NCBI GenBank assembly: GCA_965215015.1
Contig: OZ244042.1
Coordinates: 1,920,001-1,984,000, forward strand
DNA: 64,000 nucleotides
Direction of reading: 5' to 3'
Origin: Candidatus Poribacteria bacterium
GTDB lineage: Bacteria; Poribacteria; WGA-4E; PCPOR2b
The notes below the pieces were generated by a model, which worked only from the letters and a program-made list of their open reading frames with translations, was not told where the DNA came from and made no database searches. Below are positions 4,106 through 62,052 of this stretch, one piece after another. Both the position numbers and the translations under genes were made by a program. Each line of letters begins with the position of its first letter. Within the stretch, counting starts at the first letter, position 1.

Positions 4106-4372
4106 ATCCACAACCGAACACTTTAGAATACATAACAGTCGATATAAGAAGGCTGCTGTTAAGAAATCGTGCAACAGACCTTGAGCTTTCAAGAAAAAAC
4201 TCGGGTTCTCTTCGCGCCATATACTCTCTTTAAGACTTACGCAGTTGAATGCTCAATCCCTTGTTCTCTTCCCCCTGCTTGTGGGGGGCGGCGGGAAGGG
4301 GGGTATAGAAAAAGCAACCCGCTGATACCAAGCAAAGGCCTCAGAAAAACTATCTATAAGGAGACACTCCCT

Positions 4373-9400: not shown

Positions 9401-9466
9401 CCGTCCTAGAACATAACGCTCTATTCTAGAATCAATCCGCTTTAACGGAAAACCGATGGATTTTCA

Positions 9467-10909: not shown

Positions 10910-11105
10910 ATGCGAATAGTAGGCATACGGCGTATGCCTACCCCCTTAAAAAGGTGCAACGAACACGCGACTACAAGTTCAAGGGCGTAACTCCTATGTA
11001 CTAATCAACCAACATAACCCCAGTGGGGCGACAGGTGTGTAGAATTCTAACCTAACTAGCAACTTAGGTTAGAATAGCTCGCTTTAACGAAAGGACAAAA
11101 TTCGT

Positions 11106-12848: not shown

Positions 12849-12905
12849 CAGGCCTTCTACTTCGAGCAGCATCTCTGACATCCAGCGAACTATTTTCTCT
12901 CTCGG

Positions 12906-12935
12906 TTGACTCATGAGGCTGGTAGAATGTATAAT
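12906..12935 (+). promoter_or_regulatory. Putative sigma70 promoter upstream of the E2 gene
   Basis: TTGACT-N18-TATAAT. Confidence 0.55.
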
Positions 12936-13086
12936 TAACCGAAGCTGACACCTACAGTCAAGGGGGGCGGGCGGATAGTGGGCGACAAATGTCTAGAAGA
13001 AGGTACAACGAAGCTAATCCCAAAACCCCAGAAAGCGATATATTCTTTCGATCCAGTCGAGCGAAAGGCTACCACGGATAACAGAT

Positions 13087-14205: not shown

Positions 14206-14269
14206 ATAAAGCATCTAAAACCAAGAAAAGGAGGCAATTCCCTTAGAAAAACGCTGTTAAGGACGCCCT

Positions 14270-14881
14270 ATGGAAGACTACGATATTAATGAATTGATTG
14301 AACAGTTAGAATATGATGAAGATCGAGAAGCGACAATCTCAGCGTTGGTTGAGATTGGTGAATCTGTTGTGCCTGACTTGATAGAGGCGTTAGAAAACGT
14401 GATTTGGGATGTGTGTGATGGCGCCGCTGACGCCTTAGCGCAGATTGGAGCCCCTGCTGTCCCCGCTTTGATAGATACGTTTGCCCATGAATTCAGGCAT
14501 GTTGCACTCAATGCCTCCGACGCAGCCGCTCGAATTGGAGCCCCTGCTGTGCCCGCTTTAGTTGAAGCATTAAACGACACCTATGACCCCGTCCGAGAAT
14601 ATGCTGTCCGGGCGTTAAGTACGATTGGAAAATCCACCCAAGCTGTCGTGCCGGCATTGATTCAAGCACTCGGCGACGATGAAGTAGATATTCGCACCTA
14701 CGCTGCCGTTGGACTGGCAAATGTCGGTGAGGCCGCCAGCGACGCCGTGCCCGCTTTGATCGCCACCTTGATGGAGGAATCTGGCTTAACGGAGGAATCC
14801 AATCGAGTGCGTCAACATGTCGCTTTTGCATTGGCAAAAATCGGGACACCAGAAGCAGAAAAAGCCTTAAGCGAACTGTGA
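14270..14881 (+). CDS. HEAT-repeat (PBS-lyase-like) protein
   Basis: Repeated AA.AL..IG..AVPALI.AL units. Confidence 0.88.
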   Translation: MEDYDINELIEQLEYDEDREATISALVEIGESVVPDLIEALENVIWDVCDGAADALAQIGAPAVPALIDTFAHEFRHVALNASDAAARIGAPAVPALVEALNDTYDPVREYAVRALSTIGKSTQAVVPALIQALGDDEVDIRTYAAVGLANVGEAASDAVPALIATLMEESGLTEESNRVRQHVAFALAKIGTPEAEKALSEL

Positions 14882-14951
14882 GGTAAAATTATGGTTCAGA
14901 AAGAAATCCCCTCGACGAAGACATGAGATACAGCTCATTGAGATAATTCAT

Positions 14952-14980
14952 TTGAAAATTAAGTCACGATGTGGTATTCT
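14952..14980 (+). promoter_or_regulatory. Putative promoter for the oxidoreductase operon
   Basis: TTGAAA-N17-TATTCT with TG extension. Confidence 0.4.
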
Positions 14981-15188
14981 TAATAAGGTTTTCTGCTGCT
15001 CAGACTTTATCCAATCATCAAGAATTGGTATATTCGCTTAATTGGTCAATGAACTCTTCAACCCCTGCACTCCTGAATTTGGTATAATCAAAAGCAAAAT
15101 TCTCAGCTATCACTATGTAGAGGGAATTTGGCTTTGTCAATCTGCGTTTTTTAAACAGGTGGAAACCCTACGATAGAAAGGATATGAA

Positions 15189-43923: not shown

Positions 43924-44046
43924 CCCAGGTTGCTAGTAGTAGATATACTCCGTATGCCCGAACCTGTAGGTCGGGCATCTTGCCCGACCATAGCCCCAGC
44001 GGGCTAACATGTGTGTAGTATTATAAAAAACTAGCGACTTGAGTTA
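43921..44046. mobile_element. MITE-like family B overlapping the stop codon of the C25 gene
   Basis: Inverted ends TAACCCAGGTTGCTAG / CTAGCGACTTGAGTTA with internal REP hairpins. Confidence 0.65.
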
Positions 44047-44066
44047 AAGTAGAGTAAGACTATACG

Positions 44067-45080
44067 ATGATCAGATTCAGTTCAATTTTTATTCTCATCC
44101 TTCTCTGCTACCCCACCGTTGCCTTTGCCGCGGAAAAGTATGCAGGCGACTTTTTGACACTCGGCGTCGGTGCACGACCGTTGGGACTGGGCGGAAGTTT
44201 TGCAGCCATCGCGGACGATTCCACCGCGGCTTATTGGAATCCCGCTGGACTTGGGCGGTTGCGCCATTCCGAAGCAGCTTTCATGCACTCAAGTCTTGGG
44301 GACTTGGATAGTTACGATTTCGTCAACTATGTTCACCCAATCGGTGGAACTGCATCAATCGGATTGAGTTGGCTACGAGTGGGAATTGATGACATCCCGA
44401 TCACAGCACTCCCACGCCCCGCGAATCCGGTCAGCCCAGCCAATCGGCCTGAACAGATTGGAACTTTTAGCAGCACCGACAACGCCTTCTTCCTCTCCTA
44501 CGGCAGGCAGGTTGGATTCAACCTAGGGGCAAAACGGATGAACCTGTTCCTTGGTGGAAATGCCAAATTAATCTACATCACTGCACTGGGCAACACCAAT
44601 GCGCTTGGTGTCGGTGGAGACCTGGGACTCCTTTATGCGACATCTCCCGAAAAATCTCGCCGATTATCAATTGGTATCGTCGCACAGGACTTTTTCAGGA
44701 CAAAGTTGTACTGGAATACACCACCAGAAAATCCAGGCGAAGCCTCCAATACAGACACAATCGAACCTAACCTGAAAATCGGCCTTTCTTACCGCCAAGC
44801 ACTTAAGCCGTTAAACAGCCATTTGTTATTCACAGCGGATACTGATAGCCTGTACTCCTTTGAAATGCACTACGGTGCAGAATACGTTTTTGCAGAGCTC
44901 CTCTCATTAAGGATTGGTATTCAAGAGCGAAAAGGCATTAATACCAGCCGTCTAATGACGGCCGGCGCAGGGCTACGGCTTTCTTTTCTTAGCGGTGCCG
45001 CTTTCTCCGTTGATTACGCCTTCTTGGGGAACAGCGAACTGGGTAATAGCAATCGGATTTCTCTGATGACGCGGTTCTGA
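44067..45080 (+). CDS. PorV/PorQ-family (FadL-like) outer-membrane beta-barrel
   Basis: Signal peptide ending AFA; FLTLGVGARPLGLGG.F.AIADD..AAYWNPAGL; GAEY, VDYAF, terminal Phe. Confidence 0.87.
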   Translation: MIRFSSIFILILLCYPTVAFAAEKYAGDFLTLGVGARPLGLGGSFAAIADDSTAAYWNPAGLGRLRHSEAAFMHSSLGDLDSYDFVNYVHPIGGTASIGLSWLRVGIDDIPITALPRPANPVSPANRPEQIGTFSSTDNAFFLSYGRQVGFNLGAKRMNLFLGGNAKLIYITALGNTNALGVGGDLGLLYATSPEKSRRLSIGIVAQDFFRTKLYWNTPPENPGEASNTDTIEPNLKIGLSYRQALKPLNSHLLFTADTDSLYSFEMHYGAEYVFAELLSLRIGIQERKGINTSRLMTAGAGLRLSFLSGAAFSVDYAFLGNSELGNSNRISLMTRF

Positions 45081-46859: not shown

Positions 46860-48818
46860 TTAGAATTTTCCAAAAACGCGCACGAAGGTTTCCATGAAGT
46901 TATCATCGTTCGCGTCCGTGTTGGCGCGTTGATCGATGTATTGCGCGCCGATGTGTAGAAACAGCTCTTTTTCGTAGGCGACAAAGCTTTTTTCCATCTC
47001 AGCCAGAAGAGCTTGACGAATAAAATCGTTTCCATCCTCAAGCATATCATTGAAGAATAGAACCTGCCCGCCTCCAGTGATTTTGATGGTCTTGGTGAAC
47101 TGGTAAACAACTTTGAGAATAAATGCAGACGCCGCGTCGCGCACATGCGCCGCTTCAATGACACGAAGTCGGATATTGCGTGAGGTCACTGCACCGTCAA
47201 TCTCCCCCACCAATGAGAGATGTTCCAAACGGTCCTCTGCCATCTGAAAACCGTTGCGAATCGTGTATTTGAACATCGGTGTAATTTCGAGCGATTTGGA
47301 TGGACGGATGCGGTAGTTTGTTTTTAGGATGCCGACTTCGTAATGTTTGTTATCCCGATCAAAATCGAGATTGTATCGTAGTTTGAGGCGTCCTGTTGTG
47401 ACCATCTGCTTAATCCCTGAATATTCCCAAGTAACCTTGGCGGTGTTGATTACGTCATCCTGCATCAACAATGGATCTTTGCGCCGTTTCTCGACCTCAA
47501 CACCACCATCTATATCAAAAAATGTCACATCCCCTCTCGCTTCCATTTGCTGCACGTCGGGTTGAGCCCGGTAGAGTTGTCCCTCCTCCCTACTCAGGAA
47601 ACCGGCGAAGTACCAAGTTTCATCGGGAATACGGTCCTTTACCCACTTCAATTCGTTCTCGACAATCAGAGCAGCATCCTTAGAAAGATCCCTCTTGTGA
47701 ACCAGGTTGGTGAACGCCTTTGTTGCTGTCGAGGAATAGCGAAACGCCGTATCCCTGAGGTCCTTTTCAAATTGCAAACCAATATCAAGATCTGTGGAAC
47801 TTCCACTACTACTGGTCTTCTGTTTCATCAACAGCCGCAGGCCTCGCAGGCCAACATCAAATTCGTAATTGGGGTCCTTATCGTTCTCTTCCTCGTCCCG
47901 GAGACCGTTGTTATTCTGATCTCTTTCGTCAAGGAAATCCTCATCGACATCAAAGAGCAGAATGTCATCCTCATAATCGAAGGTGCCATTGTTGTTCTTA
48001 TCAAGGTCCCCGGGAATAATTAGAGAAGGCGGATCTAGCCACGTATTATCGGTGTACCGGTCCTGATCATCGTTATCCCCGACAGACCGAGAGGCATCAA
48101 AACGGGAACCGACGCGGAACGCTTCCCCCTGAAAGATGGTATCCCCAACTGTTCGGAACGCCTTAAACACAGTTGTCGTTGCGTCAAAACGCGAACTGAG
48201 GTCCTTTCTCAATGCGCCTTTTGGCGTTGCCGCAAACTCTGCCTTTAGACCGTAGTTTGCAAAGTTAGTCTCCATATCCAGAGCCCATACCGGCGTGTCG
48301 CGGAAATACCAAGAAGCTCCTAGCTTGGACTTTCCGAATTTCGTCACTTCGCGTATGCCAATTCCAGACCCCTTGACAGCTTCTTGACCGATTACCGGAT
48401 TGAGCAGACCGGGGACCATTAAGATCATCCAATCAGTCCGTTCGGAACGCACATCCCAACGCACCCCTGAGAGGTCAATCTGATCGAAGGTAAACTTTGT
48501 AAAGGTCGTCGGCACCTCTCCCAAACTCAAGATGTTTTTGACATTGCCAGCGGTCTCCTCAATAATCATGACACTATGGAATCCACGCCGAAACACGCGG
48601 TCAAAATCGAACTCGTTCTGTCGGACCGCATCCTCCTCCGTATCTGCGAGAAAATCTCGTCTATTAGTAAAATCATATTCCACACGCCCTGACAGAAAGA
48701 GCTTACCGAATAGACTGTAGACATCCTCGCCCTCTACCGGAAAGGTCAGAGGACCGAACAGGAAGAAAACCACAAAGCCGAAGATTGAAAACTTCGCCTT
48801 TACCTGCCACTTATTCAT
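46860..48818 (-). CDS. Putative outer-membrane beta-barrel protein with Asp-rich calcium-binding-like loops
   Basis: N-terminal signal-like segment, alternating amphipathic strands, terminal FVRVFGKF, DxDxNxNG-like loops (DLDKNNNG, DQNNNG). Confidence 0.72.
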   Translation of the reverse strand: MNKWQVKAKFSIFGFVVFFLFGPLTFPVEGEDVYSLFGKLFLSGRVEYDFTNRRDFLADTEEDAVRQNEFDFDRVFRRGFHSVMIIEETAGNVKNILSLGEVPTTFTKFTFDQIDLSGVRWDVRSERTDWMILMVPGLLNPVIGQEAVKGSGIGIREVTKFGKSKLGASWYFRDTPVWALDMETNFANYGLKAEFAATPKGALRKDLSSRFDATTTVFKAFRTVGDTIFQGEAFRVGSRFDASRSVGDNDDQDRYTDNTWLDPPSLIIPGDLDKNNNGTFDYEDDILLFDVDEDFLDERDQNNNGLRDEEENDKDPNYEFDVGLRGLRLLMKQKTSSSGSSTDLDIGLQFEKDLRDTAFRYSSTATKAFTNLVHKRDLSKDAALIVENELKWVKDRIPDETWYFAGFLSREEGQLYRAQPDVQQMEARGDVTFFDIDGGVEVEKRRKDPLLMQDDVINTAKVTWEYSGIKQMVTTGRLKLRYNLDFDRDNKHYEVGILKTNYRIRPSKSLEITPMFKYTIRNGFQMAEDRLEHLSLVGEIDGAVTSRNIRLRVIEAAHVRDAASAFILKVVYQFTKTIKITGGGQVLFFNDMLEDGNDFIRQALLAEMEKSFVAYEKELFLHIGAQYIDQRANTDANDDNFMETFVRVFGKF

Positions 48819-48861
48819 TAGCTAAATTTCCTTTTACGTCCTGCATTTCGCATTTCACCCC

Positions 48862-51800
48862 TTATATCCCATCGTGGTCAAACCGCTCAGTATAAACCGT
48901 CCATGCCCCTGTCAGGGAATCATATCGGGTCAAGCCGCCGTGCGTGCCAAACCAGAGATAGTCGCCATCGATTGCAATTGATAAGATGCCATTATGAGGA
49001 AGCCCATCGACTTTAGTGAAGGTCGTAAATTGTCCAGAGGTTTTGTCCAACATGGTAACCCCCTTGTCGAATGTACCGAACCAAACCCGATCCCCGCGAA
49101 TTGCCATTGATGTAATCAGATTCGAGCCCAAGCCATCCGCTTCCGTAAGTATCTTCCACGTTTCATTCACTGTATCGTAAACCGTTACACCGCGCCCACT
49201 TCCGAACCAGACCTGCTCCTTGTCAATGGTTATGCAACTGACCTCATCGCTCGCTAGTCCATCCTTTTGGGTAAAAGTAGTCCACATCCCCTGTCTGAGT
49301 GCATAAAGTGAGACGCCCCTTTTCGTTCCTACCCAAACACGATTGTCATCAACCGCTAGGCACCGAACATCATCATTTTTCAGACTCTTGCCGTACTTTC
49401 CTTCCACTGTTGGCAGGATCTCAATAGCAGCGTTATATGTTTCCCAAGCGTTCCGATCGTCGGAGAGAATGCTGTGCTTGCTAATACCGTTTTTCGTGCC
49501 GATCCACACATCGCTTCGATTCTCGACAACCGCTCGGATATCAACGCTCGGTAGTTGATTATCTTCCGTATAGGATTCAAACCGATCCGCGATTTTATCG
49601 TACCGACCGACGCCGCCCTCAGTTGCAATCCAAATATACCGTTTCCCAACAGATAGGTCAATGACATTATTATCGACCAGTTCATTTTTTTCCTCTTTTT
49701 GCTCATCTTCTTCTTCGGCCTCCTCTTCCTCATCCCCGTTGTCTTCCCCATCCCCTTCTGATTCTTCCTCCGATTTCTGAAAGTGCCTCCATCTGTCGTA
49801 CTGTTTATCGTATCGACTCAAGCCACGGTGTGTACCGACCCAGACGTATCGGGGATCGGTCGCAACAGCCACCGATCGTCGATCTGCCAAAGTCGTCGGT
49901 TTGGTGAAGGAGGTCCATGTTCCTTTCTCCTTATCATAGCGGCTCAAGCCCCTTGATGTGCCCACCCACACGTGTTTTGAATCAACCTTGAGCTGGTATC
50001 TCCAGACGCTATCATGAACAAGCCCATCCTCGACCGTGAAAGTTGTCCATGCACCGGACGCTCGCGAGTATTTTAGGACGCCTTTACTACCTGTGCCAAC
50101 CCAGAAACCATCGCTATCCTCCCCGACAGCCTCAACCCCCGAATCGGGGAGTCCATCATTGTGTGTGAAGGAGGTCCACGACTTGCCAATTTTATCGTAT
50201 CTGCTGATACCACTCCAACCGAAGCACCAGACGTAATCCTCGCTGACCTGTCCATACCTGTTCCAATCAACCCGCAGCCCTTTGCGTCTATCATAAATGG
50301 TCCAGGTATCGTTGGTGGGCTGATAGTAACTTACACCACTCGTTCCCCGATCACTGACCCACGAATAAGAACTGCCGCCACTGGTCCACACCCCCTCTCC
50401 GTCTGCGGCAATCCACTGACCGGACCGCGAAGCCATACCTTGCGCCTCTGTGTATGACCGCCAAGTTTTCGTCGCCCGCTCATATCTCTTGACCCCCACG
50501 CCGTTTGTGGAAAACCAGACATAATCTTTCGTACAGGCAATGTCTTCGATGTACGTCCCGGGACCCGCTTCTGTCACCTTCACTGATTCCCATTCTTTAG
50601 TTCGCTTATCATAGTGCGCCGCCACGCCCCCTAGGAAGGCAACCCAAACGCCAGTTGGTGCGTCAATCTCAATCAGCGTGGCGTGGTGTCCCGGTAGCCC
50701 GGATGACTTTGTGAAGTGAGTCCATGTATCAGATGCTTTGTTGTATTGCAGTACACCGCCATCCCCTGTGGCACACCAGACATTTTCTGCCCCCACTGCC
50801 AGCCGGGAAATTGAGGTGATAAACGGGACCTCGGAGGAGAGGGGTAGGGCGTTCTTCGTGTATTCTACCCACGTATCGGTGCGCCGATCAAATTTCAGAA
50901 TTGCACCATTTGGGGAAGCCGCCCAGTTGAGTACCCACAGGTAGTGTCCGTCTAACTCAATCCAACGTGCCGGATCTTCTCTCAGAATCTCTGTATCGCG
51001 ATAGGGCGTATGTTTCTCCCATCGATCTTCCCCCATCTCATAGACAGCAAGTCCGGCAACCGTACCGAAAAAAACCTGTTCACCCACGACAGCAATGCTC
51101 TGAACATTATCGTGCAGCAACCCTTCCGGATGCATGGTAACAACCTGTTGCACTCGGATTCCATCGGAGCGTGCAACACCCCCTGGTGTACCGATCCAGA
51201 TGGTTTCTCTGTCTACCGCAACTGTCCTAACATTCAGGTTCGGTAACCCCTCGGTGATGTGTGTTGACATTCCATCGCGAATAACCCACAATCCATTCCG
51301 TGTGCCGACTAGCAATCGGCCGTCCGGACTGAACGCAAGTGTGTTGACATAATCTGTCACCATCGGAAAAGGTTCAAATTTATCTGTCGCAGCATCTCTC
51401 CGATATAATCCTTCAGTTGTTCCCGCCCAAATTTCCTCATCAATTGCCTGCACCGCTGTTACCCACTTGCTCGTGAGGTAGGAAGGTGAGGCGCGAAAGG
51501 TGGGGCGTGACGAGGAAGGGGCCAAAGGCACCCCCATCGACGAGTTTTGTTGATTCGTTGATCTGCTGATCGTTTCAATCCCCGATTGCGGGGAAGTTGG
51601 TGAGTCTCCTATTAAGACACTCAATCCGCATTTCGTCCCGACCCAAACCTGATTGGAGAGACTGATGCAGGTAACGAAATTGTTTGCCAGCCCATTTCGC
51701 TCGGTATAGAAACGCCACCGCTCCCCTTCTAGTCTTCCCAGCCCCAAGGAGGTCCCAACCCATAGCGTTCCGTCGTTGGCATCACCCACTAAAGAGGTAA

Positions 51801-53055
51801 TATAGTTTGTCGTTAGACCGTCTGCTTTGGTGTAGGTTCTCCACGTTTTTTCGCGAAGTGAGTAGCGGCTCAAACCTTTATTTGTACCAGCCCAGAGGGC
51901 ATTCCCAGTCGAAACCACTACCTTAACCTGATTCGACACCAGCGTATCCCGTCTGGAATACCACGTCCACCCATCTGTCACTTTATCGTATCGCCCCAAA
52001 CCGTGCTCGTATGTGCCAATCCAAATATTCCTACCATCAACAGCTAACGCGGTAATGTGATCGCTAACCAATCCCTGCGCTGTCGTGTACTTGAACCAAG
52101 TGTCTACCGTTGTGATGTACCGCCGAATTCCACGATCCGCCGAACCAAACCAGACATTGTCGCCATCAACTGCTATCGCTCGGATGAAATCGCTCTCTAT
52201 ACGATCCGTTCGGGTATGGCTTTCAGTAAAGGTCTGGTTGATTGTACTGTACTTGCTTACACCCGATTTCTCCGTACCCACCCAAACAGCGTCAGGACTC
52301 AAAGCGATATAGCGGATATGGTTTTCTACCAACCCTTCCTCTTTCGTGTAAGCGTTCCACGCGTCCTTGGGTTTATCGTAGCGTCGGAGCCCGTCTTCTG
52401 TGCCGAACCAAACATACTTGGATTCCACTGCAACTGCGGTGATTGCGTTAAATTGATCTTTATCCTTCTCCTGTTGTAACGCCCACGCCCTAGTAGTCTT
52501 ATCATAACGCGAAATGCCCGCATCGGTACCAACCCAGATATAATTTCCGTCCACAGCGATTGCGGTCACTTTGTTGCTGGCCAAGCCGTCACGCCGCTGG
52601 AACTTTTTCCAATGGTTAGTTTCCAAGTCATAAAGACTAACGCCGAGAGGCGTACCTATCCAGACCGATTTCCCATCGGCGGCGATTGCGATAACATCAT
52701 CAGAGAGGAGCCCGTCCTCCCTGTCTAATTTTGTCCAACGATTGTCTGCTTTATGATAGACGCTGACCCCCCGATCTGTCCCTACCCAGACGTGGTCAAC
52801 TGAAGTTGAAACACAGCGGACATTATCGCTCACTAACGCTTGTTCCGCTGCTGCTTGGGTAATCGCAGCTTCCTCCAAAACAGTTGACTTGTCTGCCCGT
52901 TGATCAATTTGGCTGAGACCACACCCAAGGTGAAATAGCAGCATCAAAACTTGAAAGCAGAATAACGAGACAACGGGATAACGGGACAACAGTGGCCCTT
53001 TCGTTTTCACGTTCTCTCGGCTGCCCGTTTTTAGATCCCCATTAATCTTCCGCAT
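48862..53055 (-). CDS. Multi-beta-propeller lipoprotein 3 (two-component-regulator-propeller-type repeats only)
   Basis: Lipobox HLGC; ~29 repeats of L.S..V.AIAVD...VW.GT..G.SRYD...W..YT..DG. Start ATG 53055 or GTG 53010; the ORF-track start lies deep inside the upstream gene. Confidence 0.85.
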   Translation of the reverse strand: MRKINGDLKTGSRENVKTKGPLLSRYPVVSLFCFQVLMLLFHLGCGLSQIDQRADKSTVLEEAAITQAAAEQALVSDNVRCVSTSVDHVWVGTDRGVSVYHKADNRWTKLDREDGLLSDDVIAIAADGKSVWIGTPLGVSLYDLETNHWKKFQRRDGLASNKVTAIAVDGNYIWVGTDAGISRYDKTTRAWALQQEKDKDQFNAITAVAVESKYVWFGTEDGLRRYDKPKDAWNAYTKEEGLVENHIRYIALSPDAVWVGTEKSGVSKYSTINQTFTESHTRTDRIESDFIRAIAVDGDNVWFGSADRGIRRYITTVDTWFKYTTAQGLVSDHITALAVDGRNIWIGTYEHGLGRYDKVTDGWTWYSRRDTLVSNQVKVVVSTGNALWAGTNKGLSRYSLREKTWRTYTKADGLTTNYITSLVGDANDGTLWVGTSLGLGRLEGERWRFYTERNGLANNFVTCISLSNQVWVGTKCGLSVLIGDSPTSPQSGIETISRSTNQQNSSMGVPLAPSSSRPTFRASPSYLTSKWVTAVQAIDEEIWAGTTEGLYRRDAATDKFEPFPMVTDYVNTLAFSPDGRLLVGTRNGLWVIRDGMSTHITEGLPNLNVRTVAVDRETIWIGTPGGVARSDGIRVQQVVTMHPEGLLHDNVQSIAVVGEQVFFGTVAGLAVYEMGEDRWEKHTPYRDTEILREDPARWIELDGHYLWVLNWAASPNGAILKFDRRTDTWVEYTKNALPLSSEVPFITSISRLAVGAENVWCATGDGGVLQYNKASDTWTHFTKSSGLPGHHATLIEIDAPTGVWVAFLGGVAAHYDKRTKEWESVKVTEAGPGTYIEDIACTKDYVWFSTNGVGVKRYERATKTWRSYTEAQGMASRSGQWIAADGEGVWTSGGSSYSWVSDRGTSGVSYYQPTNDTWTIYDRRKGLRVDWNRYGQVSEDYVWCFGWSGISRYDKIGKSWTSFTHNDGLPDSGVEAVGEDSDGFWVGTGSKGVLKYSRASGAWTTFTVEDGLVHDSVWRYQLKVDSKHVWVGTSRGLSRYDKEKGTWTSFTKPTTLADRRSVAVATDPRYVWVGTHRGLSRYDKQYDRWRHFQKSEEESEGDGEDNGDEEEEAEEEDEQKEEKNELVDNNVIDLSVGKRYIWIATEGGVGRYDKIADRFESYTEDNQLPSVDIRAVVENRSDVWIGTKNGISKHSILSDDRNAWETYNAAIEILPTVEGKYGKSLKNDDVRCLAVDDNRVWVGTKRGVSLYALRQGMWTTFTQKDGLASDEVSCITIDKEQVWFGSGRGVTVYDTVNETWKILTEADGLGSNLITSMAIRGDRVWFGTFDKGVTMLDKTSGQFTTFTKVDGLPHNGILSIAIDGDYLWFGTHGGLTRYDSLTGAWTVYTERFDHDGI

Positions 53056-56000
53056 AACTTGTCCATGTCCCTGTTTTCTGATTGTAGCGACACAAACCCC
53101 GCTCCGTGCCAAACCAGAGTTGGTCACCATCAAACGCGATTGCCTCGACTCGATTATGGGGCAAGCCATCGTCCATATTAAAGATACGCCAGCTACCCGT
53201 GTTTCTATCCAGTCGTGTAACTCCCGCATCTGCCGAACCAAACCAGATTTCCTCCCCGTTCAAAGCGATGCAGGTAACAACATCGCCCCCCAAACCGTCC
53301 GATCGGGTGTAAGTAACAAAATCCCCAGATTCGATGTTGTACTTTGTCGCACCCTTACCCGTACCGAACCAGAGGGCTTCTCCATCAATGACGATGACGC
53401 TAGTGTCTGTCAGGTTGCTCTGAAGCCCGAGCTTATCAAGGACAGAGCTACCTGTGATCAGGGCTTCCCATGTCTTTTTTGCTGTATCATACCGGCAAGC
53501 CCCTTTGTCCGTGCCAAACCAGACCATCTCCTCACCGACCGCAACGCAACGAACATCATCACTCAGAAGAGTCTCTGCGTATTTCTTATCATCACCCATG
53601 CCTTTGATTTCCAGGGCGTGTGTGTATGACTCCCAAGCATTTGGATCATCAGACAGACGGTTGAAGGTTGCAACGCCCCGGTCTGTCGAGATCCATAAGT
53701 CGTAGCCTCTTACGTCCAAATCTCGGATAGTATTGGAAGGCAAACCGTTTTCAACGGTGTAGGTTTCCCAGCGATCACCGGCTTTATCGTAGCGCAGGAC
53801 GCCTCTGTTGGTGCCGAGCCAGGCGTATTTTTCGTCAATCGCTAGGCAGGTGACACCGGGTGTATCGTCCTCCCCATCCTCCACCCCCTTTAGACGGGGA
53901 GCAAACCAACGATCTGTTTGCTTGTCGTATCGATGTAAGCCATTGGTCGTTGCCAACCACACATAACGTGCTTCGGCGGCAATTGCGTACACCTTCGACT
54001 CGCGAAGCGTCCGTGTCAGAGGCGACTGGGTGAAAGTCGTCCATGCCTCTGTCTTGAGGTCATATCGGCTCAATCCCCCGGCTGTTCCCACCCAAGCATA
54101 GTTGTCATCTACCACTAGGGAATACTCAATGAGGTCGTTACTTGCGAGACCATTTTCCTCACTGAAAAATGTCCAATCCTTTGCGGCTTTGTTATACCGA
54201 GCCAATCCCTGTTCGTCCGCCGCGAACCAGACCGCGCCGGTAGTTTCCACAACTTGCATCGTGCGGTCAAAATTAACACCCTCCATCTGTGGGAGTTTCA
54301 ATGTCGTCCACGAGTCTGTTTTATTGTGATACTTCGACGCAATGGCACCACTCCCGCTCCACCCTGAGTACCTAAGCCAAACGCCATCCAGTCCCCTGTC
54401 GATCCCGTAGTTCACGCCTGAGAGCACCCGCCAGCTTGAAAATATCTCCCATTCTCCCGTCCGTCGATTATAACGGCTAGCATCTCCCCATCCCGTAACC
54501 CAGACATAATCGCCTGCGATGAGCAAATCATTGGTTTCATTGTTTCCCAAACCGTGCGCTTCCGTGATAGAGATCCATCGATCCGCCAATTTATCGTACT
54601 GCTTAATTCCTTCCCAAACCGTCGTCACCCAGACATATCGCGGATCGACCGCAATGGTCCCAATATTACTCCATTCTACACTTGGCACGATTTCATAAGT
54701 TTCCCATGTATCCGTCTCAAGTGAATAACGGCTCACCACACCGCCAATATGCGCTGTCCAGAGATATGGGGCATCAAGAACAATCGTCCAAACTTCATTG
54801 TTTGGCAGACCATCCTCCACCGTATAATGACGCCACCTATCCGTCGCTTTATCGTAGCGTAACAACCCGCCGTTGGTGCCGACCCAAACCGCATTTCCAC
54901 CCACAGTCAGCGCGTGGATGCGCGTGATTGGCCTCTCAATAGATTTCAATGGGAGGTCTGCTTTGCTGAAAAAGCGAAACGTATCTGTTCGTCCGTTATA
55001 CCTTACGATGGCCCCGTCTGTAGAATCCTTCCAATTACCAAACCAGAGCCCATCCCCGTCTTCCGCCAGCTTGCTGACCCAATTCGAGTGCAGCATTTCT
55101 GTCGTTGTCGCTGCAACGTGTTTCGACCAGTCGCCTGTCCCTTCATCCAAACAGCTGACTCCGGCGGTCGTACCTACCCAAACCTTCCCACCATTCTTTG
55201 AAATGGTTTTGACGTTATCGGAGGCGAGTCCCTCGTTAGTGTTCTCGCGGGTATAATGCGTCCATGCGGCTTCTGTGATGTTGTACTTTGCCAGTCCCAA
55301 CGGTGTTCCTATCCAGATGGTATCGTCATCAACGACAATCGCTCTGACATTGGCATGAGGAGCGTTTAATAAAGGCGCGAAAGACCGTTCGTTGTCTCGT
55401 TTTTTTCTTGCTGCGTTTTCTTTTTCTATGATGGTTGACCGGTCTAACCGCACCAAGCCGGACAGCGTGCCTATCCAGATAGAATTACCCTCTATTCCAA
55501 CGGTGTTAATCACCGCCGAAGGCAGCCCATCCGTCTCAGTCAGTTTGCCCGCAATACGGGCAGACCGATTATAGTAGATAAGACCATCTGTGGTAGCAAT
55601 CCAGACGAAATTGTCATCTAGTTTGATGTCATTAATCCAACCGGAGACTTGCAACCCAGACGGATGTGTATTCCATTTTCGGTTTTGAGGTTCGTAGGTT
55701 GAGAGTCCAGCTCTTGTTCCAATCCATAGGCGTGAGAACGTGCTCTGAGCACCTCTATGCTCCGACTCCCATGCAATACAGGTCACGAAATCATGTGCCA
55801 ATCCATCTTTCGTCGCAAAAAACGTCCACCTGTCTTCGTTTTTATGTTGAGAGGCAAATTTCGCCACCTTGTTCTCTTTTGATTCTACCGGAATTTGCCT
55901 CTTGCCTAAACCGCGCGGTGTGCCGACCCAGAGATCTTTCCCTACTTCCACAACAGCGGTAATGTAGTTATCCGCCAAACCATCTGCCTTACTCAACGTC

Positions 56001-57145
56001 CGCCAATTAAGTGCCGCCGAAAATTCTGGACCTTCGAGATAAGTTGCTTGGTTCAATCCGGATCGTGTTGCTACCCAAACTGACTCATCCGTCGCTAAAA
56101 TGTGCTTTACGTCATTATCACTCAATGCCTTAATTGCGCCATAAACCCTCCACGTTTCATGGCGCAAGTCATATCGTACCAGTCCATGCTCATACGTACC
56201 GAACCACACTACATTGCCATCTGCGGCAATTGCCGTGATATGATTGGAAGGCAACCCGCCTTCTGTCGTGTATTCCCGCCATGTATTAACAGATAAAATG
56301 TAGCGTTGGGCACCACTGTCAGCAGTCCCTAACCATAGTGACGTTCCGTCTACTGCCAGTGCGTTTATCTGATCGCTCGTCAGCCGATCCCTTTTGGTGT
56401 ACGCCCTAACAAACTCCGAATTTCGTTGATCATAGCGACTGAGGCCCTTATTCTCCGTGCCGAACCAAACAGAATCCTCATCGGCGGCAATCGCAGTCAC
56501 ACTGTTATCGATAAGGCCGCTGTCCTTATCATAGTTGTTCCATGAATCGGTGAGTTTGTCATATCTGGAAACCCCGTTCTCCGTACCGACCCAGATGTAG
56601 TCATCATCAATTGTAATCTGTGTAACAGTGTCACCCGCGAGCCCATCCGCCTCGCGCTTCCGTGCCCAACTGTTTGTCTGTTTGTCATAGCGGGAAAGTC
56701 CGTTGGGGGTGCCAAGCCAGATAAATCTCGAATCAGCAGCAATGCAGGAGACCTCTCGCCCTGCCAAGCCATCGCGCGGCATGTAGCGTGTCCACACATT
56801 CGTCTCCATTTCATAACGACTCACGCCATCGCGTGTGCCGATCCAGATCTGAGTGTCGTCCAAAGCAATCGATAAAACGTAGTTGTGAGCCAAACCGTCT
56901 CTCACAGTGAAGTTACTCCACCGACCTTGCATCTTATCGTATCGACTTAACCCCCGGTCAGTACCTACCCACAAATAACGTGAATCAACAGCTAGGGATA
57001 GAACGCGGTCACTCAGGAGCTGGCTGGCTACACCTCCCTCCTCATCAACGAAAAAATCAGGGTGCATCTGCCGTGGATCATGTATAGAACAACTCGCCAA
57101 AGACAGGAGTATTATGAACCCCAAGATTATAGGGACTTGACGCAT
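53042..57145 (-). CDS. Multi-beta-propeller lipoprotein 2
   Basis: MRQ plus hydrophobic stretch plus lipobox LASC; the same ~29 repeats, colinear with its neighbours. Confidence 0.87.
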   Translation of the reverse strand: MRQVPIILGFIILLSLASCSIHDPRQMHPDFFVDEEGGVASQLLSDRVLSLAVDSRYLWVGTDRGLSRYDKMQGRWSNFTVRDGLAHNYVLSIALDDTQIWIGTRDGVSRYEMETNVWTRYMPRDGLAGREVSCIAADSRFIWLGTPNGLSRYDKQTNSWARKREADGLAGDTVTQITIDDDYIWVGTENGVSRYDKLTDSWNNYDKDSGLIDNSVTAIAADEDSVWFGTENKGLSRYDQRNSEFVRAYTKRDRLTSDQINALAVDGTSLWLGTADSGAQRYILSVNTWREYTTEGGLPSNHITAIAADGNVVWFGTYEHGLVRYDLRHETWRVYGAIKALSDNDVKHILATDESVWVATRSGLNQATYLEGPEFSAALNWRTLSKADGLADNYITAVVEVGKDLWVGTPRGLGKRQIPVESKENKVAKFASQHKNEDRWTFFATKDGLAHDFVTCIAWESEHRGAQSTFSRLWIGTRAGLSTYEPQNRKWNTHPSGLQVSGWINDIKLDDNFVWIATTDGLIYYNRSARIAGKLTETDGLPSAVINTVGIEGNSIWIGTLSGLVRLDRSTIIEKENAARKKRDNERSFAPLLNAPHANVRAIVVDDDTIWIGTPLGLAKYNITEAAWTHYTRENTNEGLASDNVKTISKNGGKVWVGTTAGVSCLDEGTGDWSKHVAATTTEMLHSNWVSKLAEDGDGLWFGNWKDSTDGAIVRYNGRTDTFRFFSKADLPLKSIERPITRIHALTVGGNAVWVGTNGGLLRYDKATDRWRHYTVEDGLPNNEVWTIVLDAPYLWTAHIGGVVSRYSLETDTWETYEIVPSVEWSNIGTIAVDPRYVWVTTVWEGIKQYDKLADRWISITEAHGLGNNETNDLLIAGDYVWVTGWGDASRYNRRTGEWEIFSSWRVLSGVNYGIDRGLDGVWLRYSGWSGSGAIASKYHNKTDSWTTLKLPQMEGVNFDRTMQVVETTGAVWFAADEQGLARYNKAAKDWTFFSEENGLASNDLIEYSLVVDDNYAWVGTAGGLSRYDLKTEAWTTFTQSPLTRTLRESKVYAIAAEARYVWLATTNGLHRYDKQTDRWFAPRLKGVEDGEDDTPGVTCLAIDEKYAWLGTNRGVLRYDKAGDRWETYTVENGLPSNTIRDLDVRGYDLWISTDRGVATFNRLSDDPNAWESYTHALEIKGMGDDKKYAETLLSDDVRCVAVGEEMVWFGTDKGACRYDTAKKTWEALITGSSVLDKLGLQSNLTDTSVIVIDGEALWFGTGKGATKYNIESGDFVTYTRSDGLGGDVVTCIALNGEEIWFGSADAGVTRLDRNTGSWRIFNMDDGLPHNRVEAIAFDGDQLWFGTERGLCRYNQKTGTWTSYAED

Positions 57146-57321
57146 ATTTGTGTGCCTCTTCTGTAGAAAACAACAATCTTTGTGCCCCAATCAAGACATT
57201 TTTCCAAAACCGTGAAATAGTCTGTCTCTTCTGCAATGTTTTGGCTCAATCTTGACGCGAGAAGAATCCCTTTAAGGGCCAACCTTCTATGGAATTGACT
57301 TCTACATATTCTATTTTCAAA

Positions 57322-60300
57322 TCACCTTCGGTCTTCTTCTTCATCAAAATGTGGGGTAAAAATTGTCCACGTATCTGTCACTATATCATGCCGACTGAGT
57401 CCACGCTCAGTCCCTACCCAAACGGAATCCCCATCTATCGCAAGCGCAAACACACGATTATGACTGAGTCCATCTTTTTGTGTAAAGTGTTTCCATTCTG
57501 TTGTTGCCTTATGGTAGCGGGACACGCCAGCATCAAAACTGCCGAACCAGACGAAATCACCATTTGCAACGATACTGGTAATCTGATCGCTGGCTAAACC
57601 GTCAGACGGTGTGAAGAGGCGCCATTCTTCTGTCTTCGTGTTTAATCTGCTGACACCCCCTTCTGTGCCAAACCACACCCAATCCCCGTCAATGCAAATA
57701 CTACTCACTTTGTTCCGATACAATCCAGCCCGCTTCGTATAAGTTACCCAGACCTCCTTTTTCATGTCATAGCGACTGATGCCTCTCTCTGTCCCCACCC
57801 AGACGTAGCGATCTCCCACTGCTATACTAGTAACGCGGTTATCTACAAGACTGTTAGCGTATTCTTGAGATAATAGCATTGTGTCCACATCGTCTGCACG
57901 TGTGAAGGTCTCCCAAGCATTAGGGTCGTCCGAAAGTGTATTGTATCTGCTCACCCCTTTCTCTGTGCCGACCCATAAGGTGCGTCCTTTCACATCGGCA
58001 ACCTTGACAAATGTGTCGGCTAGACCGTTTTCTGCTTCGTGCTGATCCGCCCAATGCGCCGATTTGTCGAACCGGGTTACACCCTTGGCAGTTGCTATCC
58101 ACAAATATTTGTCGTCGGTGACAAGATCGTTCACAGGTTCCTCCACAATGCGCTTCTCCAACCATAAGTCATTTTGTTTATCGTAGCGCCTGGCTCCCCA
58201 ATCTGTTCCGCAATACAGGTAGCGAGAATCGACAGCAATTGCATGCACCACTTCAGCGGGCACAGCGCGTCTCCCCGTATATACCGTCCAGCTATCTTTA
58301 CGCATGTCATAACGACTGATACCGTTGGGACCACCCAGCCAAAGGAAGTTGTCCTCAGCTTTCAAAGTTGGATAGTTTATCCGATTATTCAGCAGACCAT
58401 CCTCTTCCGTAAAAACCGTCCAAGATGAGGCTGCCTTATCGTATCGACTGATACCGTGCTCTCGGCTTCCGAACCACACGAATTCAGTCGTTTCTTGAAC
58501 ATCTCTGAAATTGTTTCCTACATTCTCTGGATGTCCTCGGAAGACCTGCCAAGTCTGATTGGCCCTATGAAATCCGCTGGCGGGGACCGTATCGTCATTT
58601 TCCCACCAGCTCTGGTTATACAACACCCACATATAGTCTATCCCAGAGATAACTTCCCGAATCCGGTCAGCAACCAACCCTTTGCTGGAATCAATGATGA
58701 CCCAGCTATCTGTATGCTCATCATACTTGCTCAAGCCCTCACCCCAACCATAAGCCCAGACATCGTCATTGTCCACGACAACAAAGCCGATGGTTGCATC
58801 CAATAGACCATTCGCTGCAGTGTAACGTTTCCATGTTTCGTTCTGTTTGTCGTAACGTGCCACTCCCTCCATCTGTGCTGGAACCCAGACATAACGCCTA
58901 TCCGCCGCAAGGCGCGTGCGATATGATTCCATATCAGGGGAGACTTCCTTAAAAACCACCTGATGGGTTTCCCATTTATCCCTATCCCGCCGATACCGAC
59001 AGATTCGATTATCTCTCAAAACGACCCATACGTCATTTCCATCAACCATCAATGTTGTCGTTTTGCTCGCTGCCAGCCCATCTTTGACGGTGTAGTGCCT
59101 CCACGTATCCGAATTTTTATAATAAGCGAGCACTCCCCCATCCGTGGCAAACCATACACTGTCATCAGTCACCTCCATCCAATCAATTTGGGTGATGAGA
59201 GGCAAATTCTGCCAATCATTCCTTTTTTTATCGTAGCGGAACTTGCCTCTTGGTATCTGACTATTCGGGGGGGGCGGATGTAGGGGGGCTTTACCAACTT
59301 GCCTGGAATCTCGCTCTGATTGGTGGGACCCGCTCTGGTAGATTTCCGTCACATCCTCCTTCATGTAATGCGTCCAAGTTCCGGTGCGCTTGTCATACCG
59401 AATGATTTCTCCGTTGGCGGTGCCCCCCCATGCCAAAAACCACACCCAATCACCATCTAGTGCTGTGTGTTGTATACTGCTGTGGCGCAGAATAACCGTC
59501 CGTTCCTTTGCGCGAATCGCTCGCCAAGAGTTGTCTTCAGGAGAGTATACACCCAATCCGCCGATTGTCCCCAGCCAAATTTGATCGTCTACCACGCAAA
59601 TATCCCGCACGTTTTCGTGTCCCATCGCTACCCCTGGCTGAGTTAAATTGAATTGTCTCCAATCCAATCCTGGCACGGCGGAAACCCAACTGTTGCGAGG
59701 AAGTACACCTAACCCGCCCGGTGTACCGACCCAAAGGGCGTCTTGGGTGATAGCGAGTGTTCTTACGTTGTTATTCGGCAGTCCATCTGCCCTTGTAAAG
59801 TTGTGCCATCTTTTCTCCCGTTTATCGAATATGGAAAGTCCTTGTTGTGTCCCGACCCAAAGTCTGTTCTTCTCACTTGCAATCGCGTTGACGTGATGCG
59901 TGAAACGTGATGCGTGAAACGTGACACGTTGATTGGTTAAATCGCTGTTCTGCGAGTCCGTGAGTCGAGCTAGCCCTCGATTGGTTCCAAGCCAAAGGGA
60001 GTTGTTGTCAACGGCGATCGCGTTTATCCACGTTCCTTGCAGCTCCTTAAAAGTATGCCATTTGCCGTTCTGCTGATTATATTGACAAAGCCCATTGCGT
60101 GTGCCGATCCAGACCACCTGATCAACCACAGCTACATCAAGGACAAAATCGCTAGGAAGTCCATGCCGCCGCCGCCAGAATTTCCACCGATTGTTCTGAT
60201 ACCGCCCCACCCCCTTTGACGTTCCAACCCAGATTTTATCATCGTCAGCGACAACGCGGGTAATATAATTGGTTGTCAATCCCTGTGCTTTGGTATAGGT

Positions 60301-61500
60301 TTTCCACCCCCCAGATTGCAGGTCAAATCGACTGAGCCCCATCGCCGTACCGATCCAAAGGACACCATCCTGTTCTGCAATCGATTTGATGTTATCGCTC
60401 ACTAAGCCTTCCGCCCTCTTGACGGTACTCCACAACCCCCGAATCTTATCAAATCGTGCTAGCCCATCCTCGTAAGTGCCGAACCAAACATACTTGCCAT
60501 CGACTGCTATCGTTGTGATATTTGACGATGGAAGTCCATCCTCCATTTTATAGTGAACCCATGTGTCAACAGGTTTAATGTATCTTTGAACACCCTCGTT
60601 TGCTGTGCCAATCCAGACATACAGACCATCAACCAAGATGTAATTAATCTTATCTGTTTCGAGTAGATCTGTGCGCGTATAGGTTTTTACAAATGTCTGC
60701 TCTGTGTTGCTGTATAAACTGACCCCGGCATTTTGTGTGCCGAACCAGATGAAATCCTCATCAACAGCGATAGTTGTAACATTGTCGTCCGCCAAACCCG
60801 CGCTTGTCGTCAACTGCGTCCACGAATCGATCTTCTTATCATATCTAGATACACCTTTATCGGTTGCAAACCAGACATATTCTTCCTCCACAGCGATAGC
60901 GGAAATCTGATTACTGGTCAAGCCACCATCGTCGGTGGTGCGAAGTGCCCAAACATCAATCGCTTTATTATATCGGCTCAATCCTTTATCTGTACCAAAC
61001 CAGATGTAGTGCCCATCTACACCGATGGCCATCACGCGATTGCTCGGCAGCCCGTCGTTACGGGTATAAGTTGTCCATCTATCGATTTCGGGTTGATATT
61101 TTGAAACGCCGGATTCTGTTCCAAACCACACGGTATCCGCATCTATCGCTACACTAGACACCTTGTTATTCGCCAATCCATCTTCCACAGTGTAGCTTAT
61201 CCACAAATTTTCGTGTTTGTTGAAACGATTAATCCCTTTGTCGGTTGCGACCCAGATGTGTTTGGTATCTGCTGCAATAGCGTTGACCTGATCGCTTAAA
61301 AGCGCGGTTGTTACCCAGGGCGTAGATTGATTCATCGCTTCTGATGTCTCATCAGGCGCAGTAAAGGTACATCCAATAAGAGATAGTAAAATAACACAAG
61401 CTGCCACTTTAATCAGCCAAGCCTCAGAGATAGGAAACGACCTGAACTGCATAGTATGGCCAAGTAGCCTTCCCCTATAAATTGCACCGAAACGGGTCAT
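57322..61500 (-). CDS. Multi-beta-propeller lipoprotein 1
   Basis: Lipobox LIGC; 29 blades counted by eye. Start uncertain (61500 or 61452). Confidence 0.86.
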   Translation of the reverse strand: MTRFGAIYRGRLLGHTMQFRSFPISEAWLIKVAACVILLSLIGCTFTAPDETSEAMNQSTPWVTTALLSDQVNAIAADTKHIWVATDKGINRFNKHENLWISYTVEDGLANNKVSSVAIDADTVWFGTESGVSKYQPEIDRWTTYTRNDGLPSNRVMAIGVDGHYIWFGTDKGLSRYNKAIDVWALRTTDDGGLTSNQISAIAVEEEYVWFATDKGVSRYDKKIDSWTQLTTSAGLADDNVTTIAVDEDFIWFGTQNAGVSLYSNTEQTFVKTYTRTDLLETDKINYILVDGLYVWIGTANEGVQRYIKPVDTWVHYKMEDGLPSSNITTIAVDGKYVWFGTYEDGLARFDKIRGLWSTVKRAEGLVSDNIKSIAEQDGVLWIGTAMGLSRFDLQSGGWKTYTKAQGLTTNYITRVVADDDKIWVGTSKGVGRYQNNRWKFWRRRHGLPSDFVLDVAVVDQVVWIGTRNGLCQYNQQNGKWHTFKELQGTWINAIAVDNNSLWLGTNRGLARLTDSQNSDLTNQRVTFHASRFTHHVNAIASEKNRLWVGTQQGLSIFDKREKRWHNFTRADGLPNNNVRTLAITQDALWVGTPGGLGVLPRNSWVSAVPGLDWRQFNLTQPGVAMGHENVRDICVVDDQIWLGTIGGLGVYSPEDNSWRAIRAKERTVILRHSSIQHTALDGDWVWFLAWGGTANGEIIRYDKRTGTWTHYMKEDVTEIYQSGSHQSERDSRQVGKAPLHPPPPNSQIPRGKFRYDKKRNDWQNLPLITQIDWMEVTDDSVWFATDGGVLAYYKNSDTWRHYTVKDGLAASKTTTLMVDGNDVWVVLRDNRICRYRRDRDKWETHQVVFKEVSPDMESYRTRLAADRRYVWVPAQMEGVARYDKQNETWKRYTAANGLLDATIGFVVVDNDDVWAYGWGEGLSKYDEHTDSWVIIDSSKGLVADRIREVISGIDYMWVLYNQSWWENDDTVPASGFHRANQTWQVFRGHPENVGNNFRDVQETTEFVWFGSREHGISRYDKAASSWTVFTEEDGLLNNRINYPTLKAEDNFLWLGGPNGISRYDMRKDSWTVYTGRRAVPAEVVHAIAVDSRYLYCGTDWGARRYDKQNDLWLEKRIVEEPVNDLVTDDKYLWIATAKGVTRFDKSAHWADQHEAENGLADTFVKVADVKGRTLWVGTEKGVSRYNTLSDDPNAWETFTRADDVDTMLLSQEYANSLVDNRVTSIAVGDRYVWVGTERGISRYDMKKEVWVTYTKRAGLYRNKVSSICIDGDWVWFGTEGGVSRLNTKTEEWRLFTPSDGLASDQITSIVANGDFVWFGSFDAGVSRYHKATTEWKHFTQKDGLSHNRVFALAIDGDSVWVGTERGLSRHDIVTDTWTIFTPHFDEEEDRR

Positions 61501-61594
61501 AGCGTGGATTCCCCACTTTTTTATCTTTATCCAATTCTTCACAAAACCACAAAACTATGAAAATTCCGAGAATGTCTTAACGGTGTTCTTCAAC

Positions 61595-62052
61595 TAGGGC
61601 GTGTTGACATTTGACAGCCCGTAGGTTGAAGACTCTCCGAACGGAGTTGGGTTGAACGGGAACCTGAAATCCAACTTTCAATCCAAAAGAAGCGGGAAAC
61701 AGTAGTAGGCACACTCTGTATGCCATACCCCCTTCCCCTGCTTGCGGATTGCGTCCTCCCTCCGCTAAACATCCTGTGGGTTGTCCATCAATTCCTGGCT
61801 CATTGAGCCTACCCCCCTCAATCCCCCCGCAAGCAGGGGGAAGAGATACCGTATGGGTATTTGGGACTTCTTTTCCCCTCCCTGCTAAATATCCGGTAGG
61901 TTGTTCGTCAGGTCCTGGCTCATTGAGCCTACCCCCCTCAATCCCCCCGCAAGCAGGGGGAAGAGATACCGTAGGGGTATTTGAGGGGTTAGGGGTGGGG
62001 TTCTTGGGTTCTTAGAGGGGGGTGCGGCACGACGGACTGTGCCTACTACTGG
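61595..62052. repeat. Repeat cluster: GGCGTGTTGACATTT end, REP hairpins and a ~120-bp tandem duplication with CCCCCGCAAGCAGGGGG units
   Basis: ~61757-61862 matches ~61876-61983; the TGTTGACATTT motif is shared with ~3485 and ~18391. Confidence 0.75.

Follow-up and report, generated by a model that had tools for sequence, protein, structure and literature searches.

We examined a 64,000-nucleotide (nt) stretch of a Candidatus Poribacteria genome (positions 1,920,001 to 1,984,000 of contig OZ244042.1, assembly GCA_965215015.1; hereafter the window) and found a module that pairs an outer-membrane beta-barrel with very large propeller proteins bearing lipoprotein motifs. The host genome is a single contig of 5.94 Mb, and the module is represented in the window by four minus-strand genes, A, B, C and D. 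A, B and C each encode a protein of 29 propeller blades of the Reg_prop type, and D encodes the barrel. Barrel and propeller genes are inherited together across the phylum and mostly lie side by side. We tentatively favor the view that their products form a Poribacteria-specific outer-membrane complex of a barrel with giant lipoproteins, in which glycan binding is probable.

Gene layout

The first-pass annotation of this DNA, made by a model from the letters and a list of open reading frames (ORFs), had described four tightly spaced minus-strand genes, and the ORF list bears this out over positions 46860-61542. Gene A lies at 57322..61452 on the minus strand (-), within an ORF that reaches 61542 and with Met31 at 61452 as its likely start. 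Gene B follows at 53042..57145 (-), with an ORF to 57190 and a likely start at Met16, position 57145, and gene C at 48862..53055 (-), with an ORF to 53241 and a start at either ATG 53055 or GTG 53010. Gene D closes the series at 46860..48818 (-). The ORFs are 1406, 1382, 1459 and 652 amino acids (aa) long for A, B, C and D, respectively. The stop of A is separated from the likely Met of B by 176 nt, B and C either overlap by 14 nt or leave a 31-nt gap depending on the start chosen, and 43 nt separate the stop of C from the start of D. Promoter-like sites at the locus (26, vs 18.7 in shuffled sequence) and terminator-like sites (11 vs 12.8) are at about chance level. Four sequencing runs, all from one study, were listed as covering window positions 46860-56800, and none of them is on record as RNA.

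Co-inheritance and linkage of the barrel and propeller genes

We followed the genes through a sample of 121 Poribacteria genomes, calling a propeller orthologue where a 29-blade protein matched with an E-value (E) of at most 1e-50. Full-length or nearly full-length D is found in 98/121 genomes and a propeller orthologue in 99/121. Both occur in 98 genomes and neither in 21, and no genome has one intact gene alone, although, with related genomes in the sample, the observations are not independent and the counts overstate the number of evolutionary events. Only fragments occur in the two discordant genomes: G018 has pieces of D with a stop codon together with a weak propeller match, and G112 has a 61-aa fragment of D. 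The 21 genomes without both genes span 10 genera, and such joint absence in ten genera points to repeated joint loss.

The two genes are also physically linked. In at least 86 of the 98 genomes the gene immediately upstream of D, on the same strand, is a propeller gene, and the matched segments are a median of 158 bp apart. The propeller is on the same contig but apart from D in G091, G113, G030 and G045, and on a different contig in G079, G042, G004 and G046. For G098, G104, G035 and G006 no place of the propeller appears among the matches listed; the order in G104 is reversed, with the propeller directly downstream of D. The coupling of barrel and propellers had been staked on conserved linkage in other genomes. 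That linkage is strongly supported, and the barrel and propeller genes are on this evidence a real, conserved functional unit. The named homologues of the module proteins are all hypothetical proteins of 'Candidatus Poribacteria'. Outside the pair, flanks inspected in other families contain genes for an M56 peptidase, WD40 proteins, DUF1501/PSCyt2/PSD1 proteins, Lon and a Band 7 protein, and no recurring neighbor of the D-propeller pair was seen among them.

Sequence and fold of the propeller lipoproteins

We used a motif test for bacterial lipoproteins, namely a signal peptide followed by [LVI][ASTVI][GAS]C with a conserved Cys. A carries LIGC (Cys58, codon 61369-61371) and B carries LASC (Cys34, codon 57089-57091), whereas C has the lipobox-like motif HLGC (Cys107, codon 52921-52923), in which position -3 holds a non-canonical His. 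The Cys does not vary among the aligned family members (21/21). By motif, then, all three paralogues read as bacterial lipoproteins, as first proposed, C with its non-canonical His, and the mature proteins are 1349-1353 aa long.

The Reg_prop (PF07494) scores of A, B and C are 142, 121 and 140 bits (cut-off 20.4), and those of the Pfam family PorZ_N_b_propeller are 34-67 bits (cut-off 27). With scores above the gathering cut-off, units of ~42 aa and four-stranded blades, A, B and C are Reg_prop propeller proteins. The Pfam scan matched propeller families alone in the three proteins and returned no Y_Y_Y, kinase, receiver or AraC domain, in agreement with the earlier observation that the kinase, Y_Y_Y and AraC parts usual for this repeat type are absent.

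A blade hidden Markov model (HMM) built from A, B and C counts 29 units in each protein, a number to be read as 29 +/- 1 because a few of the units match weakly and a single gap of 50 aa in A is left unmatched; all three proteins end right after blade 29. We modeled B residues 355-1382 with AlphaFold2 from a 19-row alignment, a span that covers the last three propellers. The model has 22 four-stranded blades (pLDDT 81.5, pTM 0.56), which a DSSP count by eye divides into propellers of 7, 8 and 7. Together with the first seven they give 29 in total, which fits the 7+7+8+7 arrangement suggested at the outset. In structural comparison, residues 706-1028 of the B model match seven-bladed WD40 propellers (Z 28-29, rmsd 2.3-2.6, 261-276 residues aligned) and residues 343-691 match a larger propeller (302-305 aligned).

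The paralogues share two landmarks that had been read from the sequence, and both can be seen by eye in the translations. At blade 15 the proteins read GEIIRYDKRTGT in A, GAIVRYNGRTDT in B and GAILKFDRRTDT in C; at blade 25 they read SDDPNAWE in A and in B and SDDRNAWE in C. Pairwise identity among A, B and C is 35-36%. Across the four paralogue groups, blades 1-7 and 23-29 are the best conserved and blades 10-16 the least.

The barrel D

D has the features of an outer-membrane barrel, and the Phe-terminated barrel reported after the propeller genes is confirmed. The 652-aa protein has a signal peptide, ends in the aromatic C-terminus ...FGKF, and is modeled from a 30-row alignment as an all-beta barrel of ~26 strands running from residue 83 to the C-terminus (pLDDT 70.2, pTM 0.63). 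Two segments of the model have pLDDT <50, a conserved N-terminal stretch (residues 31-82) and an acidic insert (residues 237-323, encoded at 47850..48110, minus strand). The insert, of 87 residues, sits between strands 10 and 11 and contains two D.NNNG..D.E motifs, whose D/N/G columns at 248-313 are invariant or near-invariant. We take these to be probable thrombospondin-type-3-like Ca-binding motifs.

Ten strands precede the insert and 16 follow it in a DSSP string read by eye, and many presumed outer loops of the model are only 2-3 residues long. Such strand parity would place the N-terminal segment, the insert and the other long connections of D on the periplasmic side, and it hints at a partner that faces the periplasm. 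The parity case rests on low-confidence segments, and the lipoproteins may face either the periplasm or the cell surface.

D matched no family in Pfam or NCBIfam at E up to 0.01. At the same threshold it has no match to the PorV/PorQ family (NF033709) and, in Pfam, no Plug or receptor domain of the kind that marks TonB-dependent receptors and SusC. Foldseek returned 59 matches at E <=0.001, which are outer-membrane barrels throughout among the matches listed, with TM <=0.34. VIA-align gave Z 10-14 over porins, TonB receptors, secretins, BamA, LptD, MtrB and SprA, and the TonB-dependent barrels (Z 13-14) match no better than porins, secretins and other barrels. The longest structural alignments are to SlpA, MtrB and LptD (341-370 residues for the LptD/MtrB class). 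We therefore rejected the assignment of D to any specific known barrel: the fold-search scores are generic and no relative stands out.

Relatives of D in other phyla

A search of 1.84 billion cluster representatives with D gave two full-length relatives (64% and 34% identity) and weak partial matches to proteins of 700-1150 aa. Further away, 53 loci in other phyla, among them Latescibacterota, Gemmatimonadota, Elusimicrobiota, KSB1 and Zhuqueibacterota, encode D-like proteins of 800-1000 aa, all annotated as hypothetical proteins, that have the acidic insert and its flanking strands. Their 23-38% identity covers parts of D residues 28-650, the distant matches centering on 245-400, and the acidic insert is the portion of D best shared with them. 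These barrels differ from D in being longer and often standing in tandem arrays. None of the 53 loci has a protein of 20 or more blades, and one has a 5-unit protein ~5 kb off.

Three of these loci, one each in Latescibacterota, Gemmatimonadota and Elusimicrobiota (L095, L097 and L104), were scanned. They contain one to several D-like barrels of ~900 aa, with a ~1070-aa TPR protein or a CBM30/CBM11 protein as neighbor, plus proteins with type IX sorting domains. A large D-family barrel beside a very large repeat or glycan-binding protein is a recurring theme. The three operons represent, in their own right, an uncharacterized multi-gene outer-membrane system of other phyla.

Two further ORFs of the host genome share the insert of D, one of 1119 aa at genome positions 5030187-5033543 (-) and one of 791 aa at 3500864-3503236 (+), with 30-32% identity to the insert region over ~155 residues. 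Many family-f3 genomes have the 1119-aa type at 15-30 kb from D, and the copy in G033 (L045 7708-11073) adjoins a propeller gene.

The trio of propeller genes and the single partner

We inspected the arrangement of the module directly in a subset of genomes. The A-B-C-D layout occurs in G039 (family f1) and in G020 and G010 (family f2), with orthologues of A holding the same position in G039 and G020, and eight genomes of families f3 and f4 have a single ~1400-aa propeller with D. The host genome encodes exactly four such propeller proteins. The fourth paralogue, P4, lies 2.3 Mb from D at genome positions 4311420-4315634 and has 1405 aa and the lipobox VGGC. In a quick IQ-TREE phylogeny, A, B and C each form their own clade across three genera (SH-aLRT 99-100), and P4 is nested in the clade formed by the single-copy genes next to D. 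Its identity to these genes, its family-f3 counterparts included, is 69-75%, against 33-35% to A, B and C. D is conserved to a matching degree, being 72-77% identical to its family-f3 counterparts, and is 72-93% identical within Poribacteria. Layouts, tree and identities together indicate that P4 is the orthologue of the widespread single D partner, that one propeller plus D is the common state, and that the trio is a lineage-specific expansion in two families. The 3+1 arrangement of the first-pass annotation is accordingly not a conserved unit, the widespread form being 1+1, but the trio itself stands, confined to those two families.

D can be accompanied by either propeller type. In genera g2 and g6, A/B/C are present and the P4-type gene is absent in 5/5 genomes checked, and G091 and G079, both of the host genus, have kept D and P4 and lost A/B/C, apart from a remnant of B in G091. 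This remnant (L065 139-336) lies just upstream of D and encodes 65 aa that are 82% identical to B residues 1066-1130. It looks like the trace of a recent deletion of the trio.

A proposed barrel-lipoprotein complex

In the arrangement that we propose, the ~26-strand barrel D would physically partner with lipoproteins of four Reg_prop propellers (7+7+8+7). With the trio upstream of D and P4 at a distance, a single barrel probably works with as many as four lipoproteins (A, B, C and P4). Since the two Reg_prop proteins of known ligand, PorZ and the sensor BT4663, are both glycan binders, homology makes carbohydrate polymers at the envelope the most likely ligands of the propellers. Labor may be divided between the propellers: the first and last, being the best conserved between paralogues, could dock to D or another shared partner, and the middle ones, being the most diverged, could give each paralogue its own ligand.

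We ran a complex prediction for one pair, D residues 31-652 with C residues 107-440, the lipid-proximal first propeller. The pair scored 0.43 (runs 0.43, 0.36 and 0.47), and the best of three controls scored 0.01. At least 53% of the contacts are common to the runs and the partner has pLDDT >=78; no interface was returned for D and C. By way of calibration, 58/80 solved complexes and 2/110 mismatched pairs attain the mark for the complex score; with scores at <=0.60, just 7 of the 80 solved complexes do so, together with both mismatches. The prediction lends weak support to physical binding between D and the lipoproteins.

Several points weigh against the proposed complex. A score of 0.43 falls in a band that is more often wrong than right unless the interaction was likely beforehand, the N-terminal propeller of C is the only one that was tried, and the D segments that might contact a partner (31-82 and 237-323) are those of lowest confidence in the model. 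The neighboring genes offer no carbohydrate-metabolism context. The distant D-like barrels are not beside multi-blade Reg_prop genes (0/53), kinship among genomes inflates the co-occurrence counts, and the module is dispensable, as the 21 genomes without it show.

Type IX secretion genes near the module

On the far side of D, at window positions 37648-45080 (+), lie a PorU-type C25 sortase of 2091 aa (NF033707, 442.9 bits vs 420; with a sorting-domain tail) and then a PorV/PorQ-family barrel of 337 aa (NF033709, 113 bits vs 90), along with a DUF4159 protein. These neighbors and the PorZ-type similarity of the propellers were both overlooked in the first reading. In NCBIfam the three propeller proteins match T9SS_PorZ best, A, B and C reaching 101.6, 120.4 and 123.3 bits, below the curated cut-off of 260 bits (NF052228), which no protein of the genome exceeds. 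A-C have no C-terminal type IX sorting domain, since 0/38 TIGR04183 matches of the genome fall within genome positions 1968865-1981542.

Elsewhere in the host genome there are 37 Por_Secre_tail matches over the cut-off, a second PorU-like gene at position 9310-15600, and a weakly SprA-like ORF at genome positions 1372690-1376415 (71.5 bits vs a cut-off of 200). One ORF of 1488 aa in the window, at 4169-8635 (+), ends in a Por_Secre_tail match (genome 1928366-1928626) and is a candidate type IX cargo. GldL and GldM had no matches in the host genome, but control searches were likewise empty, so absence is not shown. Candidates for GldK were rejected, the host-genome matches being below the cut-off and of generic sulfatase-modifying-type domains.

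PorU-like matches occur in 121/121 genomes, at 1-4 each, including the 21 without the module. One lies 3-13 kb from D in 14/14 genomes of the host genus. In the distant lineage of G004 a gap of 288 nt separates PorU from the propeller gene that follows it, and in G111 the PorV and PorU genes are ~9 kb from D. G039, G020 and most of the other genomes listed show no such adjacency. Downstream of the propeller in G004, one frame (L147 17859-19901) holds RpoA-type (RNA_pol_L, RNA_pol_A_bac) and then RpoB-type (Rpb2_1, Rpb2_3) domains, which could be a fusion or an assembly artefact.

According to a study of Porphyromonas gingivalis (PMC8545088), PorZ has two propellers, binds a glycan, anionic lipopolysaccharide (LPS), and acts with PorU in an attachment complex that also includes the barrels PorV and PorQ. 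A 2014 single-cell study (PMC3909097) reports many Poribacteria proteins with type IX sorting domains and no secretion machinery found.

Alternative explanations

These neighbors bear on what we regard as the most interesting alternative, namely that the module is an accessory of type IX secretion. The lipoproteins would be PorZ-like and present an envelope glycan to PorU, and D would be a PorQ-like holder barrel, together making a lipoprotein-type attachment complex in a phylum without canonical PorZ. We judge this rather improbable. That T9SS_PorZ is the best match of A-C speaks for it, as do PorU and PorV/PorQ-family genes 3 kb from D, the proximity of PorU to the module throughout the host genus and in G004 and G111, and a genome with 37 sorting tails, two PorU-like genes and no PorZ over the cut-off; the operons of D-like barrels in Latescibacterota and Gemmatimonadota also contain sorting-domain proteins. 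However, the PorZ scores are far under 260 bits, A-C are without a sorting domain, D has no PorV/PorQ match and ~26 strands where PorQ has 14, and PorU is not next to the module in G039, G020 and most other listed genomes. Since PorU-like genes are also found in all of the 21 genomes that lack the module, the module is no core part of secretion and at most an accessory of the type IX pathway. The type IX-like route of Poribacteria may be a reduced or divergent one. That D and its four-propeller lipoproteins are a new class of outer-membrane machine and form the glycan-presenting, surface-attachment arm of such a non-canonical pathway, in place of PorZ-PorQ, seems unlikely to us. The first-pass annotation had likened the module to a Sus system, in which surface propellers would catch polysaccharide and D would be the uptake channel. 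The propellers do belong to a glycan-binding class, the pairing of lipoprotein and barrel genes resembles the SusD/SusC layout, and diverged paralogues could supply several specificities. A Sus-like function nevertheless has no specific support and we hold it to be unlikely: D has neither a TonB plug nor a receptor domain, its resemblance to TonB-dependent barrels is no closer than that to other barrels, the conservation of D and P4 is unusually strong for surface proteins specific to a nutrient, and the neighbors are not glycan-utilization genes, with glycoside hydrolase, sulfatase and regulator genes not consistently nearby either in the host genome or in the flanks of other genomes.

The conservation of D and P4 would suit an endogenous ligand, and it is a point for a different orientation of the same proteins. 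Lipoproteins on the inner leaflet of the outer membrane could be docked to periplasmic parts of D as a periplasm-facing scaffold, with peptidoglycan or a periplasmic or nascent envelope polymer as ligand and a role in structure or biogenesis. The strand parity of D, which puts its long segments in the periplasm and leaves short outer loops, agrees with such a scaffold, and thrombospondin-type-3-like motifs occur in periplasmic linkers of OmpA-like proteins. On the other side, the parity is read from the DSSP string of a pLDDT-70 model in which the segments concerned are below 50, and a module lost in 21/121 genomes is inessential to the envelope. We consider the scaffold improbable on balance. 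Least probable of all, in our estimation, is that D exports or inserts the propeller lipoproteins, sending them to the surface by a Slam-like logic and without stable partnership. Strict co-inheritance and adjacency, several paralogues per barrel and the large size of the barrel would all be expected of such a device. D shows no Slam/DUF560 similarity in Pfam or NCBIfam, though, a folded seven-bladed propeller would be too wide for a 26-strand lumen, and the complex score points, if anything, to defined docking. We retain, as a tentative preference, the stable complex of D with its probably glycan-binding lipoproteins.

Comparison with known systems

BT4663 is a heparin-sensing hybrid two-component sensor of Bacteroides. 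Its periplasmic domain (PDB 4a2l, 4a2m) has the same repeat family as A-C and is the top structural match of the B model (Z 29.1, 521 residues aligned, rmsd 21.8; Z 28.5, 545 aligned, rmsd 17.2). Identity to B is 18-19% in an alignment that extends over two propellers, and the rmsd is high because the domains are differently arranged. A-C differ from BT4663 in having no Y_Y_Y, transmembrane, kinase, receiver or AraC parts, and in having twice the number of propellers, a lipid anchor and a barrel partner. With propeller families as their only Pfam matches, they are not hybrid two-component sensors of the BT4663 type.

Barrel-plus-lipoprotein complexes of the outer membrane include SusCD, LptDE and MtrBC. 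The module resembles them in being a gene pair of a barrel and a dedicated lipoprotein, and D falls with LptD and MtrB in the ~26-strand size class. It differs from them in that there is no family-level sequence match, D has no TonB plug, and the four-propeller fold of the lipoproteins is unlike SusD, LptE or MtrC. PorZ-PorQ is alike in another respect, as a Reg_prop-type propeller protein at the outer membrane with a barrel partner; PorZ propellers bind an envelope glycan, according to PMC8545088, and PorU/PorV genes are close by in the host genome. PorZ, which the type IX system secretes, has two seven-bladed propellers with a sorting domain, whereas A-C have four propellers and a lipid anchor. 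D, moreover, is outside the PorV/PorQ family and much larger, and the poribacterial module is missing from 21 genomes that keep PorU.

For the pairing of a 29-blade lipoprotein with a barrel we found no characterized counterpart in Pfam, NCBIfam, fold searches or the literature, as the first-pass annotation had anticipated. A published description of D with the 29-blade lipoproteins was likewise not found, although supplementary tables, such as Table S9 of PMC3909097, might list the genes. No other cluster of ~1400-aa Reg_prop proteins was seen among the nearest protein-atlas matches, a result to be read as a lead only.

Repeat element upstream of gene A

A dispersed repeat element lies 5' of gene A at 61700..62051, with two tandem units of ~110 nt flanked by 20-nt inverted repeats. 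The unit has at least 23 copies of at least 80 nt genome-wide. The element is probably an insertion that lies outside the module.

Significance

Poribacteria are dominant, uncultivated symbionts of sponges, and little is understood of the construction of their cell surface. The module described here is strongly conserved and phylum-specific, and its two parts are a barrel of a new family and the largest Reg_prop architecture met in this analysis. Its all-or-nothing distribution, with 98 genomes that have both genes and 21 that have neither, is a natural comparison set for finding its function. Together, the strong conservation, the phylum specificity and the pairing of a new barrel with the largest Reg_prop architecture make the module a concrete candidate for a device of envelope or host-matrix interaction.

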